A DNA stretch of 64,000 nt. Origin: Rhodobiaceae bacterium (GTDB lineage: Bacteria > Pseudomonadota > Alphaproteobacteria > RS24). Shown piece after piece: positions 9,849-16,221 of this stretch; the first letter of the stretch is position 1, and every line of letters begins with the position of its first letter. The stretch covers positions 23,114-87,113 of the forward strand of contig JABJKE010000034.1 of the NCBI GenBank assembly GCA_018660505.1, read 5' to 3'. A program made the position numbers and the translations under genes. The notes beneath the pieces are model-generated. The model ran no database searches. It saw nothing but the letters and a program-made list of their open reading frames with translations, and had not been told where the DNA came from.

Positions 9849-9983
9849 GACAAACTCCTCTATCAAACTGTCTGATTGATAGTCACGGATAAGCAACCGG
9901 TAATCAATCCCCTATTACGCCGCGTCCGGTTTCTGATGCGGCGAGGGGGGAGGTTGCTTTAAGATTGTTATTTGGCGGAAATG

Positions 9984-10072
9984 AAAAAGGACGTCCCGTA
10001 GGACATCCCCTCAATGGTGTAAGTTCATACTTGTTAACCCTAGCAAGAACCACCTATTCCCAAGTAGTCAAT
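9984..10072 (-). ncRNA. tracrRNA: tracrRNA (predicted)
   Basis: - Minus strand of 10033..10065 reads ACTTGGGAATAGGTGGTTCTTGCTAGGGTTAAC, complementary to the crRNA-sense repeat GTTGCTCTAGCCCCCCCCCTATTCCCAAGT.
- Pairing is a 13-bp perfect block plus an 11-bp block with one bulge.
- Downstream on the minus strand lies the hairpin GGATGTCC-TACG-GGACGTCC followed by TTTTTCATTT (plus 9984..10010), an intrinsic terminator.
- TATAGT -10-like box on the minus strand at 10079..10084.
- Ends are approximate. Confidence 0.75.
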
Positions 10073-10127
10073 AACGTGACTATACTCCAATCTCATTAGA
10101 AAAAAAATAATAAAGTGAGATGCGACA

Positions 10128-13100
10128 ATGAAATACCGTTTGGGAATAGACGTGGGCACCAATTCTTTGGGTTGGGCCGCCTTGGGGCTGGATGACCATG
10201 AGGTGCCAATTTGCCTTGTAGATGCGGGCGCGCGCATTTTCAGCGAGGGTCGAGATGCCAAAACAAAATCAACACTCAAGGCGAGCCGAACAGAGAAGCG
10301 CTCGGCGCGTCGGCGGCGAGACCGGTTTTTGCAGCGTCAAAAGTTTTTGATATCAGAGCTGGTAGAGTTCAAGCTCTTTCCCGCCGACATAGATGAGCGC
10401 AAGCAGCTCGAGGCACAAGACCCTTATGCTTTGCGCCACCGTGGGCTTTTGGAAAAGCTCGACCTCCATCAAATTGGCAGAGCTCTTTTTCACCTCAATC
10501 AAAGGCGCGGATTTAAATCTAATCGCAAAGATAAGAGTGAGGAAAGCACCAGCGGTGTTGTATCCAAATCAGTCCGTGCCTTGTTGCAAGAAATGAAACT
10601 AATGGCTGCGGAGCTTTCCGAAGACGACTTCAAGGCTTTGTCCAAGGAAGAGAACAAAGCCCTTCGCGTTGAAGAAGCCACCAATCGGAAATTGGCAATT
10701 GAAAACCTTGCCGCGCAACCCAATGTGAGCTTTGGCTCTTTCCTGCATCAGCGTCGCCAAAAGGGGCAGACTGTGCGGGCACGTCGGCAAGCGGATGGCA
10801 AGCTTTATGATGTCTACCCGACGAGAGAATTGCTCGAGGATGAGTTTACCAAAATCTTAGCGAAACAGGCCGCGTATTATCCCGATGTGATAACGCCCGA
10901 GGTGAGGGAACGGCTTCGCATTATCATTTTCACCCAAAGAGAGCTGAAGGAACAAAAGCGAGGGCTGTGTAGTTTTTATGCCGAAGAAAAAAGAACCTTC
11001 CGCTGTATGCCGGGTTTCCAGCGTTATCGCATGGTGCAAGACCTGCACGCTTTGGAGTGGGCCGATACAAATGGCAAGCATTGCTTGCGCGACTACCCCG
11101 ATGCCCGCGATGAGATATTGGCCAAGATGGAAGGCGTAACCAGTAAAAAGGGCGAGTTTACGTTTGGCAATATGAAAAAGATTTTGAAAAAGCATGGCCT
11201 AGTGGTTGGAGATACGCGGTTTAATTTTGAAAACCCCAAGCGCAAGGGTTTTGAAGGCAATATGACTTCACGGATTATGCAACATGAGGAACTTGTGGGC
11301 GCGCAATGGTATGATTGGCCGCTAGAAAAACAAGATAGACTGATTGACATTGTTAATGATGGCACTTTGATAGACGAAGAAGTGCTGGGTTATTTGCAAA
11401 ATGAATTCGGGCTATGCGAGTTTAACGCGCAAAACACCATGAACGCCCATCTGTTTGAGGGAACGGCAAGCGTATCGCAAAAAGCCGCCCTGAAACTGTA
11501 TCATCACATGCTGGCGCATAACTGCCTGCAATCGGATGCTGTGCAAGCCTGCGCAGAAGAAGATGAAGCCTTTGCCAATCCGTTTACCAGACAAGGCAGC
11601 GGGGAGTTGCTCGACGCGCTTCCCTATTATGGAGAAGCTTTTCAAGATGGCCGCCATATTATTCCTGGCGACCGCGACCCTAAAGACAGCCATGATGCTG
11701 CGAAATATTATGGCGCCGTGTCTAATCCGACAGTGCATATTGCGCTGAATCAAATCCGTCAGGTGGTCAACGAGCTGATAGAGCGCCTTGGGCATCCCAC
11801 CTCTATCTCTATCGAGCTGGCTCGTAATTTGCCGGAGGGCGAAATAGGCCGCAAGAAGATAGAAAAAGAACAGGCGGATAACCAAGTAGCCAACGGGGAT
11901 ATCGACGAAGAGCTTGAAAAGCTGGGTCAAAACCCTTCGCGCGAAAACCGTTTACGCTTGGCACTTTGGAAGCAATTATCCACGGACCCTAATAGTCGGT
12001 TTTGCCCCTTCACGGGCGAAAAAATAACGATGAGCGACCTATTTAATGGGGCGGCCGAGATTGAACATCTTATTCCGTTCTCACAATCGTTGGACGACAG
12101 CAAAGCCAATAAGGTAATCTGCACCCGCAAAGCCAATCGGGATAAGGGCAACCAAACGCCTTTCCAAGCCTTTGGCCATAGTCCAAATGGCTATGACTGG
12201 CAGGCCATCCAAGAGCGCGCCAATGATTTGCCCCAATCCAAAAGGTGGCGCTTTCAAGAGGATGCGATGGAGATATGGCTTCGCGATCATTCTGATTTCT
12301 CTGGCCGACACCTCAATGACACGCGCTATATTGGCCGCCTAACGCGCGAGTATTTGGAAGCCGTTTGTCCTCATAATAAAATTGATGTTGTGACGGGACG
12401 CCTCACCGCCTTATTGCGCGGCCATTGGGGGCTAAACAGTATCTTGCGTGGCCATAATGCGCCCGAAACCGAAAAGAATAAAAAGCTTAGAGACGACCAC
12501 CGCCATCATGCGATTGATGCCATTGTGATTGGCATGACCACGCGGTCTATGTTGCAGCGCGTGTCCACGGCGGCGGGGCGGGCTGAAGAGCTAGATATCG
12601 CGCGACTATTCGTCACCAATGATGCAGGGCATTCGGCAATTGAGCCTTGGGATGGTTTCCGCGACGAAGTGGGCGAGAAAGTGCGGTCGGTTATTGTTTC
12701 GCACAAAGTGAAGCGCAAAACACGCGGCCATGGCGCGACTGATGGGCAGCTTCATAATGAAACAGCCTATGGCATAGTTTCTGGGCCAGATGAGGAAGGC
12801 GGGTATGAGGTAACGGTGCGCAAACCCGTTGGATATTTTGATACGAAAAAACGCATAGAAATTATTCGGGATGCAACCATTCAAGCGGCGTTTCTAGATG
12901 CATTCGAGGCCGCACCCGATGCTAAAAGTGCCAAACAGGCGGTTTTGCAGCGCGCCAGTGAGATGGGGGTGAAGTCTGTTCGTACGCTAGAAGTGAAAAA
13001 AATTGTTCCCATCGCTGATAAATCTGGCAAGGCATATAAAGCCTATGCCCCAGATGGTCATTGGGGCATGGAAATCTTTGAGTATCCTTCAGGGCATAAG

Positions 13101-13457
13101 AATGCGGGTGAGTGGGAAAGCGTTATCATCACGAGGTTTGAAGCCAACCAACCAAGCTTCAAACCCGGGGAAACCAAGCGTCCCCATCCAGCCGCAAAGC
13201 TTGTCATGCGGTTTCAAATTAACGATTTGGTCGAAGTCACGATTGACGGCGAGCCCACTATCTACCGCGTTCAAAAAATGTCTGCAGGGATGCTTGTCTG
13301 TGCGCCGCCCAATGAAGCCAATGTAGATGCACGGAAAAGAGATAAAGAAGATGCGTTCCAATATAAAGAATTCAACGCCCGTCGCTTGAAAAAACGCAAG
13401 GCGCGCAAACTTCATATCAGCCCGTCCGGCAGAATAAATTATTCTAAAGGTAAATAG
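10128..13457 (+). CDS. cas9: CRISPR-associated endonuclease Cas9, type II-C
   Basis: - 1109 aa.
- RuvC-I: MKYRLGIDVGTNSLGWA.
- Arg-rich bridge helix: RTEKRSARRRRDRFLQRQ.
- RuvC-II: ISIELARNL.
- HNH: EIEHLIPFSQSLDDSKANKVICTRKANRDKGNQTP.
- RuvC-III: DDHRHHAIDAIVIG.
- Followed directly by cas1-cas2, with no csn2 or cas4. Confidence 0.97.
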   Translation: MKYRLGIDVGTNSLGWAALGLDDHEVPICLVDAGARIFSEGRDAKTKSTLKASRTEKRSARRRRDRFLQRQKFLISELVEFKLFPADIDERKQLEAQDPYALRHRGLLEKLDLHQIGRALFHLNQRRGFKSNRKDKSEESTSGVVSKSVRALLQEMKLMAAELSEDDFKALSKEENKALRVEEATNRKLAIENLAAQPNVSFGSFLHQRRQKGQTVRARRQADGKLYDVYPTRELLEDEFTKILAKQAAYYPDVITPEVRERLRIIIFTQRELKEQKRGLCSFYAEEKRTFRCMPGFQRYRMVQDLHALEWADTNGKHCLRDYPDARDEILAKMEGVTSKKGEFTFGNMKKILKKHGLVVGDTRFNFENPKRKGFEGNMTSRIMQHEELVGAQWYDWPLEKQDRLIDIVNDGTLIDEEVLGYLQNEFGLCEFNAQNTMNAHLFEGTASVSQKAALKLYHHMLAHNCLQSDAVQACAEEDEAFANPFTRQGSGELLDALPYYGEAFQDGRHIIPGDRDPKDSHDAAKYYGAVSNPTVHIALNQIRQVVNELIERLGHPTSISIELARNLPEGEIGRKKIEKEQADNQVANGDIDEELEKLGQNPSRENRLRLALWKQLSTDPNSRFCPFTGEKITMSDLFNGAAEIEHLIPFSQSLDDSKANKVICTRKANRDKGNQTPFQAFGHSPNGYDWQAIQERANDLPQSKRWRFQEDAMEIWLRDHSDFSGRHLNDTRYIGRLTREYLEAVCPHNKIDVVTGRLTALLRGHWGLNSILRGHNAPETEKNKKLRDDHRHHAIDAIVIGMTTRSMLQRVSTAAGRAEELDIARLFVTNDAGHSAIEPWDGFRDEVGEKVRSVIVSHKVKRKTRGHGATDGQLHNETAYGIVSGPDEEGGYEVTVRKPVGYFDTKKRIEIIRDATIQAAFLDAFEAAPDAKSAKQAVLQRASEMGVKSVRTLEVKKIVPIADKSGKAYKAYAPDGHWGMEIFEYPSGHKNAGEWESVIITRFEANQPSFKPGETKRPHPAAKLVMRFQINDLVEVTIDGEPTIYRVQKMSAGMLVCAPPNEANVDARKRDKEDAFQYKEFNARRLKKRKARKLHISPSGRINYSKGK

Positions 13458-13478
13458 CCAATCAGGGCGTGTTTAACG

Positions 13479-14387
13479 ATGCCAGAGCAAATTATAGAGA
13501 TAGCCGAATCTGGACGGCGACTTTCCAAGCGCCGAGGGTTTATTGAAATCTACGAAAAAGAAAGCCTATTGGGAAAAGTATCTGTAGATGATGTGAGTTC
13601 TATTATTATCTCGACGCCGGGCTGTTCGGTAACGACAAATTTAATGGATGAATTATCCCTTGCGGGCATACCGCTTGTAATTTGTGGCAAGAACTACCTT
13701 CCGAGTTCGGTGACAATACCGCTGCAAGGGCATCAGAGACAATTTAAAATTATGCAGCAGCAAGGGCAAATAAGTGAGCCAAGGCGCAAGCGAGCTTGGC
13801 AAAAAATTATTCAAGCAAAAATTACCAATCAAATGGAAGTTTTGGAGAGAGCAGGGCAGACAAACCATAAGCTCAAACAATTGGTAAAAAGGGTTGGGTC
13901 GGGGGATCCTGAAAACATAGAGGCGCAGGCTGCCAGAATTTATTGGCAATGTCTTTTTGGCAGTGAGTTCAGAAGAGACAGAAACCAAGTTGGGCTAAAC
14001 GCAGCTTTGAATTATGCCTATACGGTTTTGCGTGCCTGTGTTGCGAGGGGCGTGTGCGCCGCAGGGCTTCACCCGTCTTTTAGTTTGCATCATAAAAGTG
14101 CGCGTAATCCTTTCAACTTGGTGGATGATTTAATTGAGCCGTTACGACCTATGGCCGATTATTTGATTTACTCAAAAGTGGAAGATTTTGTAGGGGAGCT
14201 GAATCCAGACTTGAAGCAACATTTGGCAGGTTTGTTAAGCCTTGAGGTGCAAGCAGAAAATGGTATCGGCTCTCTATCTGTCGCAACGGCAAAAATGTGT
14301 CAGGCTCTCGTCGCTTATTATTTCGGCGACCTAGATGCCGATTTTACCCTGCCAATGCCTAGCCCTTTGGCTTATCATGCATCTTAG
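13479..14387 (+). CDS. cas1: CRISPR-associated endonuclease Cas1 (type II)
   Basis: 302 aa. ENIEAQAARIYW, LNYAYTVLRA, GLHPSFSLHHKSARNPFNLVDDLIEPLRP motifs. Position between cas9 and cas2. Confidence 0.95.
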   Translation: MPEQIIEIAESGRRLSKRRGFIEIYEKESLLGKVSVDDVSSIIISTPGCSVTTNLMDELSLAGIPLVICGKNYLPSSVTIPLQGHQRQFKIMQQQGQISEPRRKRAWQKIIQAKITNQMEVLERAGQTNHKLKQLVKRVGSGDPENIEAQAARIYWQCLFGSEFRRDRNQVGLNAALNYAYTVLRACVARGVCAAGLHPSFSLHHKSARNPFNLVDDLIEPLRPMADYLIYSKVEDFVGELNPDLKQHLAGLLSLEVQAENGIGSLSVATAKMCQALVAYYFGDLDADFTLPMPSPLAYHAS

Positions 14388-14706
14388 TGCCTATAGGATA
14401 ATGTGGCTTTTCGTAATGTTTGACCTTCCGACGGGGTCTAAAAAAGAAAGAAAAGAAGCCAGCGCGTTTAGGAATGGTCTATTGGATCAAGGTTATGAGA
14501 TGTCACAATTTTCAGTTTACTTAAAATATTGCTCTAGCCCTGACCGCGCAGAGGCATTGGAAAAGAGAATAAAGGCAATTTTACCGTCGGGTGGAAAAGT
14601 AGATATTTTAAAAATAACCGATAAACAATTTGGGGCGATGAAACGTTACAAAGCTAAATACGAATCAAAAAATGAAAAAAAACCTAAACAATTACACCTA
14701 TTTTAA
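14377..14706 (+). CDS. cas2: CRISPR-associated endoribonuclease Cas2 (type II)
   Basis: ORF 14335..14706. ATG 14377 gives MHLSAYRIMWLFVMFDLPTGSKKERKEASAFRNGLLDQGYEMSQFSVY, collinear with type II Cas2 N-termini (..MRMILMFDMPTDT..ERK..). Overlaps the cas1 stop by 11 nt. Confidence 0.9.
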   Translation: MHLSAYRIMWLFVMFDLPTGSKKERKEASAFRNGLLDQGYEMSQFSVYLKYCSSPDRAEALEKRIKAILPSGGKVDILKITDKQFGAMKRYKAKYESKNEKKPKQLHLF

Positions 14707-14767
14707 TCAGTTTTGCGAACGCGAAACTATAAACCACACAACAAATTCAATACCTTACATCAACTCT

Positions 14768-14873
14768 AGCTTAGCACTTGGGAATAGGGGGGGGGCTAGA
14801 GCAACGCGGCGGCTGTCGCCTCCTCTGCTGCTTGCAGCTTAGCACTTGGGAATAGGGGGGGGGCTAGAGCAAC
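14768..14873 (-). CRISPR. minimal CRISPR array: 2 identical 38-nt repeats, 1 spacer of 30 nt
   Basis: - Repeat (plus strand) AGCTTAGCACTTGGGAATAGGGGGGGGGCTAGAGCAAC at 14768..14805 and 14836..14873.
- Spacer GCGGCGGCTGTCGCCTCCTCTGCTGCTTGC at 14806..14835.
- Minus-strand reading GTTGCTCTAGCCCCCCCCCTATTCCCAAGTGCTAAGCT has the GTTG...GCTA.. shape of type II-C repeats and matches the tracrRNA anti-repeat, so the crRNA sense is the minus strand. Confidence 0.85.
14836..14845 (-). promoter_or_regulatory. repeat-embedded extended -10-like box (TGnTAAGCT) that could drive the single crRNA
   Basis: The minus strand of the repeat's distal end reads GTGCTAAGCT. Compare the TGnTACAAT box at the same repeat position in Neisseria meningitidis II-C repeats. 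A start about 7 nt downstream would leave about 24 nt of spacer. The same box is in repeat 1 (14768..14777). Confidence 0.4.
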
Positions 14874-14875
14874 CC

Positions 14876-14950
14876 ATGCCTCGTAAGCCGCTTCGCTTTA
14901 ACCAAGCCCAAACAATAATCCATTAGGATTTTCGCCACGCCCTGCTTCCA
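14876..14950 (+). repeat. left copy of an imperfect ~75-80-nt direct repeat (partner 15871..15950)
   Basis: Blocks aligned by eye:
- ATGCCTCGTAAGCC vs ATGCCGTGAAAGCC (11/14)
- AACAATAATCCATT vs AACAAAAATCTATT (12/14)
- GGATTTTCGCCACG vs GGATTTTCGCTACG (13/14)
All are in the same order and orientation. Confidence 0.6.
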
Positions 14951-15357
14951 GCGTTACCGCTATAGCCCTTCATAAAACATCCTGATTTATCGGGCTTCGA
15001 GATGTCCACTGAAACGCGTTTTCGTATCCGTTTATTTCTATTTCGACGACACTTCACTTTTTTGAAATGAAATATCACTTTTCTTCCTAAAACAAATCTG
15101 ATTAGGTTTTACAAGGTGAGGTGGGTTTTTGCGTTTAACTAAGAACCGTTAATGTACCTTGTCTTTAAAAGTGTGCCGTTTTGGCAGTCAACTAAGGAGA
15201 ACATTAGCGGAGCTTCAGGTAAATCCAAATGGTTTTGATTTCAAGGTAGGCAAGTGATGAAAGCTTAGACCGTCCTTGAGCCTTGAAGATCAGTCGCTGA
15301 AAAGGCTTAGGGTTAAAATGGTATGTATTCATTCGTAATTATGTTGAGGAGAGTTAC

Positions 15358-15789
15358 ATGACTTTTGTAGAAACAAATATGTTTTACGCGCAAATCTATC
15401 AATTTATGGGATTAGCTTTTATCGGTTCGTCTTTTTTACTTTGGGTTGGCATGCGGGTTACTTCCGTTTTAGTGGAACGCGAAACGGACAATATCGTTGC
15501 CAAAGTATTGGCGATTATCTTTGGGATAGCGGTTAGCCTGAACTACATCACCATCAGTGCCAATTTGGCGCTCCAATTAGAGAGCCACGCATACTCGCTG
15601 AAGCAGCTAGCTGCGCAGGGCATGGACCTACCAGCTACATCGCTCGGCTTTATTGAAAGAATGGGCGGTGGCAACGCCGTTCCTGAATTTAGCCTGCTGG
15701 GAAATCCGCTGCAAGTGGTGATTGGCCTTATTGCGCTGGCCTTCTGCATCATGCCTCTTTTCGTACCAGTGAAATCTAACAATTCCTGA
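15358..15789 (+). CDS. hypothetical small integral membrane protein (about 3-4 TM)
   Basis: 143-aa ORF with GGAGAG RBS upstream of ATG 15358. Hydrophobic segments (FMGLAFIGSSFLLWVGM, VLAIIFGIAVSLNYI, VVIGLIALAFCIMPLFV). Followed by an intrinsic terminator. No family recognised. Confidence 0.55.
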   Translation: MTFVETNMFYAQIYQFMGLAFIGSSFLLWVGMRVTSVLVERETDNIVAKVLAIIFGIAVSLNYITISANLALQLESHAYSLKQLAAQGMDLPATSLGFIERMGGGNAVPEFSLLGNPLQVVIGLIALAFCIMPLFVPVKSNNS

Positions 15790-16130: not shown

Positions 16131-16221
16131 TGGCGGAGAGGAAGGGATTCGAACCCTCGATACGGGATTACCGCATACTCCCTTAGCAGGGGAGCGCCTT
16201 CAGCCACTCGGCCACCTCTCC
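16131..16221 (-). tRNA. tRNA-Ser (anticodon GCU)
   Basis: Minus strand reads GGAGAGGTGGCCGAGTGGCTGAAGGCGCTCCCCTGCTAAGGGAGTATGCGGTAATCCCGTATCGAGGGTTCGAATCCCTTCCTCTCCGCCA. 7-bp acceptor stem, anticodon loop CUGCUAA, long variable arm, TTCGAATC T-loop, encoded CCA. Confidence 0.93.

Follow-up and report, generated by a model that had tools for sequence, protein, structure and literature searches.

[quoted passage not shown] The behaviour of short arrays has been described in Neisseria meningitidis, where no crRNA is made from a lone repeat and only weak crRNA from arrays of one to three spacers. When arrays of this species shrink, the common routes are collapse by repeat recombination and cas9 inactivation, and crRNA-poor cells acquire spacers faster, as short arrays boost acquisition via apoCas9 (PMC12477760). 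The Nme1Cas9 locus contains cas9, cas1 and cas2 only, with the array downstream of cas2 and read towards the cas genes. Its repeat starts with GTTG and ends with TGnTAnnnT, and its spacers are 30 nt long. All of these features are shared by the locus described here, which lies in a 64-kb stretch of DNA that was analysed as a whole (the window). The array of this locus holds a single spacer, S1. We compared it with the arrays of closely related loci, and this comparison makes it likely that the S1 array is a real, ordinary adaptive array, representing one allele of a small adaptive array that turns over and is probably eroding, and not a fixed guide.

CRISPR–Cas is rare in uncultured marine alphaproteobacteria, and the host of the window is such a bacterium, probably Parvibaculales-like by its gene sequences. 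Its SpoT homologue shares 78% identity with a 'Parvibaculales bacterium' MAG, and the closest named Cas9, with 62% identity, belongs to the marine Candidatus Micropelagos thuwalensis; together, these two matches point to an uncultured marine alphaproteobacterium. The GC content of the host backbone is ~55–56%, compared with 44–49% in the cas region.

The CRISPR–Cas cassette and its mini-array

Judged by its sequence, the locus is a complete type II-C cassette, composed of tracrRNA, cas9, cas1, cas2, a 61-nt leader and the array. The whole cassette spans ~4.9 kb (9948..14890), from the tracrRNA to 17 nt beyond the array, an extent given by presence/absence haplotypes. First, a putative tracrRNA, recognized as an anti-repeat with a terminator, is located on the minus strand at ~10068–9984. 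The anti-repeat (10068–10033, minus strand, ACTACTTGGGAATAGGTGGTTCTTGCTAGGGTTAAC) is complementary to the minus-strand repeat transcript, and the terminator is a predicted GC-rich hairpin with a T-run (GGGGATGTCCTACGGGACGTCCTTTTT, 10010–9984, minus). The predicted cofold of the anti-repeat with the crRNA-sense repeat has a value of −56 kcal/mol and shows an internal loop opposite the poly-C tract of the repeat. Rfam searches at the gathering threshold and at E values up to 5 gave no match to a CRISPR-DR or tracrRNA family. The cas9 gene (10128..13457, plus strand) is intact in the window and encodes a protein of 1109 aa that matches TIGR01865 (E = 6e-178). Alignment to solved structures of type II-C Cas9 proteins shows its RuvC-I motif GIDVGTNSLGWA and HNH motif EIEHLIPFS, and the nearest non-conspecific Cas9 relatives are 66% and 62% identical; the contig that carries the 66%-identical Cas9 ends exactly in the first repeat of its array. 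The cas1 gene (13479..14387, plus) belongs to the type II (NMENI) family (TIGR03639, E = 4.5e-75). The cas2 gene (14416..14706, plus) has 96 aa as called in related contigs; the longest ORF begins at 14335, and TIGR01573 matches residues 23–115 of this long ORF (E = 1.2e-19). The adaptation module therefore consists of cas1 and cas2 only, without the csn2 of type II-A or the cas4 of type II-B, and cas9, cas1, cas2 and the array are contiguous. The next ORF (15358–15789), outside the cassette boundary, has no NCBIfam match. This 143-aa ORF just past the array is extremely conserved, with 1 SNP in 23 loci, and is also kept in cassette-less haplotypes.

The cassette is a presence/absence polymorphism in a variable spot near tRNA-Ser (16131–16221, minus). 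In haplotype L033, window positions 9948–14890 are replaced by 442 unrelated nt (L033:54–495), and in haplotype L032 (GCA_029242115.1), positions 9914–14941 are replaced by 1.17 kb (L032:917–2084). As read from these haplotypes, the cassette is dispensable and horizontally mobile. The cassette-less haplotypes carry unrelated short inserts with small unassigned ORFs. Many contigs among L047–L053 stop 100–200 nt past the cas-distal repeat, at about window 14980–15075; this is probably where the assembly graph is split, as cassette-plus and cassette-minus haplotypes come together again (boundaries 14891 and 14942). At the left end of the cassette, GTTGCTTTAAG at 9952 was considered as an inverted degenerate repeat and rejected as a chance resemblance, with six contiguous matches and a few scattered ones by eye.

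The array itself is composed of two repeats and one spacer, all assigned to the minus strand from the complementarity of the anti-repeat. R1 (14768–14805) is the cas2-proximal, last-transcribed repeat and would supply the tracrRNA-pairing part of the only crRNA, and R2 (14836–14873) is the cas-distal, first-transcribed 'extra' repeat. The spacer S1 between them is 30 nt long (14806–14835) and reads GCAAGCAGCAGAGGAGGCGACAGCCGCCGC in crRNA sense. An earlier reading of the window, made from the sequence only, had described two identical 38-nt repeats with one 30-nt spacer, and this description holds exactly. The repeat AGCTTAGCACTTGGGAATAGGGGGGGGGCTAGAGCAAC (GTTGCTCTAGCCCCCCCCCTATTCCCAAGTGCTAAGCT in crRNA sense, minus strand) is 38 nt long and 100% identical between R1 and R2, with a period of 68 nt. 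With up to three mismatches, it is found in the 64-kb window at R1 and R2 only, and it is absent from window shuffles, where 0 occurrences are expected. The same reading had seen no degenerate third repeat, and our alignments agree: the ungapped identity is 12/38 at −68 and 8/38 at +68, near the background (mean 9.8, 95th percentile 14), and gapped local alignment of the repeat to the array flanks gives best scores of 5 and 7.

The canonical repeat of this array's family is 36 nt, and the 38-nt length in the window is due to a G9 homopolymer, a run whose length in related copies ranges from G6 to G9. This G-run (window 14787–14795 and 14855–14863), which becomes poly-C in the crRNA, differs between strains as well as within single arrays, as in L007 (G8/G7/G9) and L010 (G9/G7); this variation may reflect true slippage or homopolymer sequencing error. 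The repeats of relatives have GGTAGGG or GGTATGG at the position of the G-run instead.

The orientation of the anti-repeat places the crRNA sense on the minus strand, so the array is read towards cas2, the direction known from type II-C loci elsewhere. The AT-rich interval of 61 nt between cas2 and the array (14707..14767, minus) lies at the transcription-distal end and is a putative leader for spacer integration by analogy with type II-C loci (PMC12080349; PMC12477760); it is invariant except for one or two SNPs across all related contigs. The 3′ end of R2 in crRNA sense, TGCTAAGCT, forms a candidate extended −10 element and parallels the repeat element GTTGTAGCTCCCTTTCTCATTTCGCAGTGCTACAAT / TGCTACAAT of N. 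meningitidis (PMC12477760). The candidate −10 hexamer is TAAGCT in the window, compared with TACAAT in N. meningitidis. Outside the central segment, three related repeat variants differ only at the 'n' of TGnTAAGCT, which is C, T or G, and the TG and TAAGCT parts are invariant among them. This conservation supports, without proving, an extended −10 promoter embedded in the repeat. The cassette ends 17 nt past the cas-distal repeat and thus carries no external array promoter, which also fits promoters inside the repeats. A generic sigma-70 promoter and terminator scan returned no site in the array and none for the tracrRNA. By analogy with N. meningitidis, transcription most likely runs on the minus strand from the TGCTAAGCT element of R2 and starts a few nucleotides into S1. 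The product would be a single crRNA, with a guide of ~24–25 nt followed by the cas2-proximal repeat, which would pair with the tracrRNA and load Cas9. Transcription entering R2 from upstream would yield an 'extraneous' crRNA with the guide GGTTAAAGCGAAGCGGCTTACGAGGCATGG (window 14874–14903, minus), and strains with a lone repeat would make no other crRNA-like product. By eye, no terminator is seen upstream of R2, and a small AAGC/GCTT hairpin is present there.

Array alleles and cas9 variation in the population

We compared the window with 36 independent metagenome contigs (ENA, JGI and Logan), which were recovered by exact-protein look-up with Cas1, Cas2 and the downstream ORF; an exact look-up with the Cas9 protein of the window returned no contig. 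Over 4.9 kb, the cas locus of the recovered contigs is 99.6–99.96% identical to that of the window. The two flanks that border the array of the window abut a lone repeat in 28 contigs. S1 is the only spacer in two contigs (L005 and L010), and one more (L003) has the order cas2-R-S1-R-S2-R and ends in the array. Spacer S3 is found in three contigs (L004, L006 and L008), S5 only in one (L015) and cas2-R-S4-R-S5-R in one (L007). The population therefore contains five different spacers (S1–S5), with the lone repeat as the commonest allele, and none of the 36 contigs has more than two complete spacers; these allele frequencies are rough, since exact-protein look-ups are biased towards long contigs and certain protein alleles, and arrays that are long and heterogeneous could be under-represented in metagenome assemblies (both L003 and L004 end inside arrays). 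Constant repeats with five different spacers, at loci that are at least 99.6% identical, identify an adaptive array. The sequence-only reading had considered that sister strains might carry long arrays and the spacer match phages in the ordinary way, in which case the single spacer would mean simple array loss; within the species, we find 0–2 spacers in the 36 contigs, and the long array is that of a related species, with 12 spacers. Two of the S3 arrays have a degenerate cas2-proximal repeat (35 nt, GGGGGGATAGAGCAAC; L004:436–470 and L006:5290–5324), with an extra A>G in L006, and the S3 spacer of L008 has a normal repeat. By analogy with other type II-C arrays, the degenerate repeat would be the expected integration site and the source of the crRNA handle.

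The alleles with 0, 1 and 2+ spacers most likely arise from gains of spacers and by losses through repeat–repeat recombination. The pairs S1 / S1+S2 and S5 / S4+S5 require at least one gain and at least one loss, under either insertion polarity. If new spacers enter at the cas2-proximal repeat, as known from Neisseria and Campylobacter, the order in L003 would make S1 the newest spacer and favours contraction as the source of the S1-only allele. In this contraction, the older S2 unit would be lost from an array such as that of L003, cas2-R-S1-R-S2-R. By this analogy, loss of S2 is the most likely origin of the S1-only allele, and direct acquisition onto a lone repeat is possible. Recent acquisition and array collapse had both been proposed from the sequence, as two of three explanations among which no choice was made; the allele pairs show that both are real in the population.

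The lone repeat could, on the other hand, be not only the commonest but also the ancestral state, in which the cassette arrived or to which it was reduced, with S1 as a fresh single acquisition that was perhaps stimulated by crRNA-free Cas9. We consider such array neogenesis a serious but less likely alternative. The lone repeat far outnumbers all other alleles and occurs on diverse cas9 haplotypes, and the window and L005 differ at 2 sites in 4.9 kb and have intact cas9, as in a young clone. The step from S5 to S4+S5 fits stepwise addition at the cas2-proximal end, and the mechanism has a precedent in Neisseria (PMC12477760). However, under type II-C polarity S1 in L003 would be the newest spacer with S2 behind it, so an S1-only allele implies that S2 was lost or that the identical spacer was acquired twice. 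The widespread knock-outs and relaxed constraint of cas9 described below are also unlike a newly useful, expanding system. One consideration against the preferred reading, an ordinary adaptive array that turns over, is that 'super-adaptation' by apoCas9, if it operates here, should refill lone repeats quickly, yet lone repeats dominate.

A longer array collapsed to one spacer by assembly, which the sequence-only reading had also raised, is scarcely credible. Assemblies classically break at CRISPR arrays; the contigs L003, L004 and L056 stop within an array or at its edge, and many contigs end 100–200 nt past the repeat. Nevertheless, R-S1-R with both unique flanks is present in three independent assemblies, which give an identical S1 array, and it is reproduced across assemblers (SPAdes for L005 and megahit for L010). 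The mini-array measures 104–106 nt, and in one k=141 contig, a single k-mer spans the array and its flanks. Alleles with 0, 1 and 2 spacers are all cleanly resolved by the same pipelines in assemblies with a final k of 141, and lone-repeat and one-spacer alleles co-occur in the k=141 megahit contigs of one project. A k of 141 that exceeds the length of the mini-array, together with the three independent assemblies, makes collapse unlikely.

The cas9 gene is intact in the window, and three independent knock-outs are found in the population. These are a 1-bp deletion at nt 1039 (L006), the nonsense mutation E417* (L007 and L018) and an inserted A at nt 2206, which is found in seven aligned loci and, by split gene calls, in seven more. 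The knock-out loci include L006, L007, L012, L015, L018–L020, L023, L024, L047–L051, L053 and L054, and knock-outs are found both with and without spacers. The 21 distinct SNPs of cas9 comprise 2 synonymous and 19 nonsynonymous changes, compared with 5 synonymous and 3 nonsynonymous changes in the flanking orf143, SDR and dapA genes (Fisher p = 0.008). These patterns suggest that cas9 is under relaxed constraint and that the system is probably eroding; the nonsynonymous excess could reflect diversifying selection instead of decay. Many of the cas9 SNPs are C>A or G>T, and the alleles A312 and H978 of the window cas9 are found in no other contig. The change H556N was considered as a catalytic knock-out of cas9 and rejected, since alignment to Cas9 structures identifies the HNH histidine as H647.

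Composition, targets and role of the spacer

In crRNA sense, the base counts of S1 are A8, C10, G12 and T0, which reproduces the earlier count of 22/30 G/C (73% GC) with no T. The spacer is also more GC-rich than the cas genes, as had been remarked, with 73% against 44–49% in the cas region. Among the 30-mers of the window, 5.1% reach 22 G/C or more, 0.47% lack A or T and 0.16% show both properties, and the spacers S2–S5 have a GC content of 52–60%. With 5.1% of the window 30-mers as GC-rich as S1 and the other spacers at 52–60%, S1 is compatible with DNA of host-like GC. Its GC content is unremarkable for the host; the missing T is rarer but was singled out post hoc. The suggestion that S1 resembles host-type or GC-rich-replicon DNA more than AT-rich phage DNA carries little weight, as the host itself has ~55% GC. 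Phages of a ~55% GC host are expected to be GC-rich as well.

Host DNA (here 296 kb), phages, plasmids and metagenomes, where the sequence-only reading had suggested looking for the origin of the 30-mer, yielded no target and hence no flanks from which to read a PAM. No target of S1 is present within the 64-kb window, and no match with up to six mismatches occurs in 296 kb of conspecific DNA, which represents part of the host genome only. IMG/VR contains neither the exact 30-mer nor the PAM-proximal 20-mer, and the blastn hits among GenBank phages and PLSDB plasmids are all at chance level (E ≥ 0.1). The exact 24-mer of S1 is found in none of the 185,579 GTDB species-representative genomes and in none of the JGI metagenome contigs, and 22-mers of each of S2–S5 have no match in IMG/VR. 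The genome and metagenome collections used for the S1 24-mer (GTDB and JGI) also lack the repeat core, so the S1 negatives there are weak, and all target negatives for S1–S5 are to be read against collections that barely cover this organism. If a foreign origin is assumed, S1 most likely derives from a phage, a plasmid or a foreign chromosome that has so far escaped sampling and whose GC content is close to that of the host.

The sequence-only reading had further proposed a fixed guide with a regulatory or self-directed role. S1 would then be kept for the repression or targeting of a host or prophage sequence by Cas9 with this crRNA, in the manner of the Francisella or Neisseria scaRNA or of a self-targeting spacer. 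We regard this role as highly improbable. S1 is unchanged in four independent samples, namely in the window and in L003, L005 and L010, which come from three other samples. In addition, cas9 is intact in both full-length S1 cases, and the composition of a guide without U is unusual (0.47% of host 30-mers). A fixed guide, however, predicts conservation of both S1 and cas9, and neither is seen, so this role is not supported. S1 is present in 3/36 related contigs; most conspecific loci lack it, many being spacerless and others carrying different spacers. The whole cassette is dispensable, and cas9 has been inactivated repeatedly, in three ways. The 296 kb of conspecific DNA hold no S1 match with up to six mismatches, and the exact 24-mer is absent from the 185,579 species-representative genomes. 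Moreover, S1 is placed in a normal repeat–spacer–repeat unit, not in a degenerate scaRNA-like unit. We also think it very unlikely that the lone U-free, GC-rich guide has a non-immune self or prophage role within the S1 sub-lineage, whose cas9, tracrRNA, cas1 and cas2 are intact, or that slippage in the hypervariable poly-C tract acts as a switch that would tune crRNA:tracrRNA pairing or the repeat promoter.

Comparison with known systems

The locus reveals no new mechanism: it is a type II-C array of minimal size, and the cassette around it is dispensable and in part decaying. It gives a natural population snapshot of the laboratory findings in Neisseria, with arrays down to one or zero spacers, inactivated cas9 and occasional re-acquisition, and it could be used as a field test of whether short arrays refill or belong to systems that are being lost. 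Common CRISPR finders set thresholds that arrays with one spacer or a lone repeat do not reach, and loci like that of the window get reported as 'cas genes without an array'.

The scaRNA of Francisella novicida and N. meningitidis resembles the unit described here in being a single Cas9-associated guide-like RNA beside a type II locus, and it is the model on which the fixed-guide proposal builds (PMC13431127). The window unit differs in that it is a canonical repeat–spacer–repeat with perfect repeats; its spacer is not conserved among conspecifics, and no host target was found for it.

Candidatus Micropelagos thuwalensis (GCA_000469155.1, locus L055) has an array whose 36-nt repeat (AGCTTACCACTTGGGAATAGGTAGGGCTAGAGCAAC) is of the same family as that of the window, with 30-nt spacers and a Cas9 of 62% identity. 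Unlike the window, this locus has 13 repeats and 12 spacers directly after cas9, with no cas1 or cas2 called, and the centre of its repeat is GGTAGGG and not a homopolymer. Its neighbourhood also differs from that of the window and contains small phage-like ORFs and an integrase. In L055:65–10874 (AWXE01000003.1), eight small minus-strand ORFs without Pfam matches lie upstream, and a phage-integrase gene lies downstream; this Cas9 array may be carried on a mobile element. One spacer of the array, CCTGTTCATGGAGTGCCCACTTGAACCTTT, occurs twice (7371 and 7767).

Finally, beyond the shared layout, the window Cas9 is distant from Nme1Cas9 and is alignable with it mainly over the RuvC and HNH regions. 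Unlike that of N. meningitidis, the window tracrRNA is located upstream of cas9 and is divergent from it, and the window repeat contains the variable G6–G9 tract (poly-C in the RNA). The arrays also differ in size, with 0–2 spacers in this species and about 25 in N. meningitidis strain 8013. Short and lone-repeat arrays and cas9 inactivation, which are observed here, and recombination collapse, which is proposed here, are all documented in N. meningitidis (PMC12477760).
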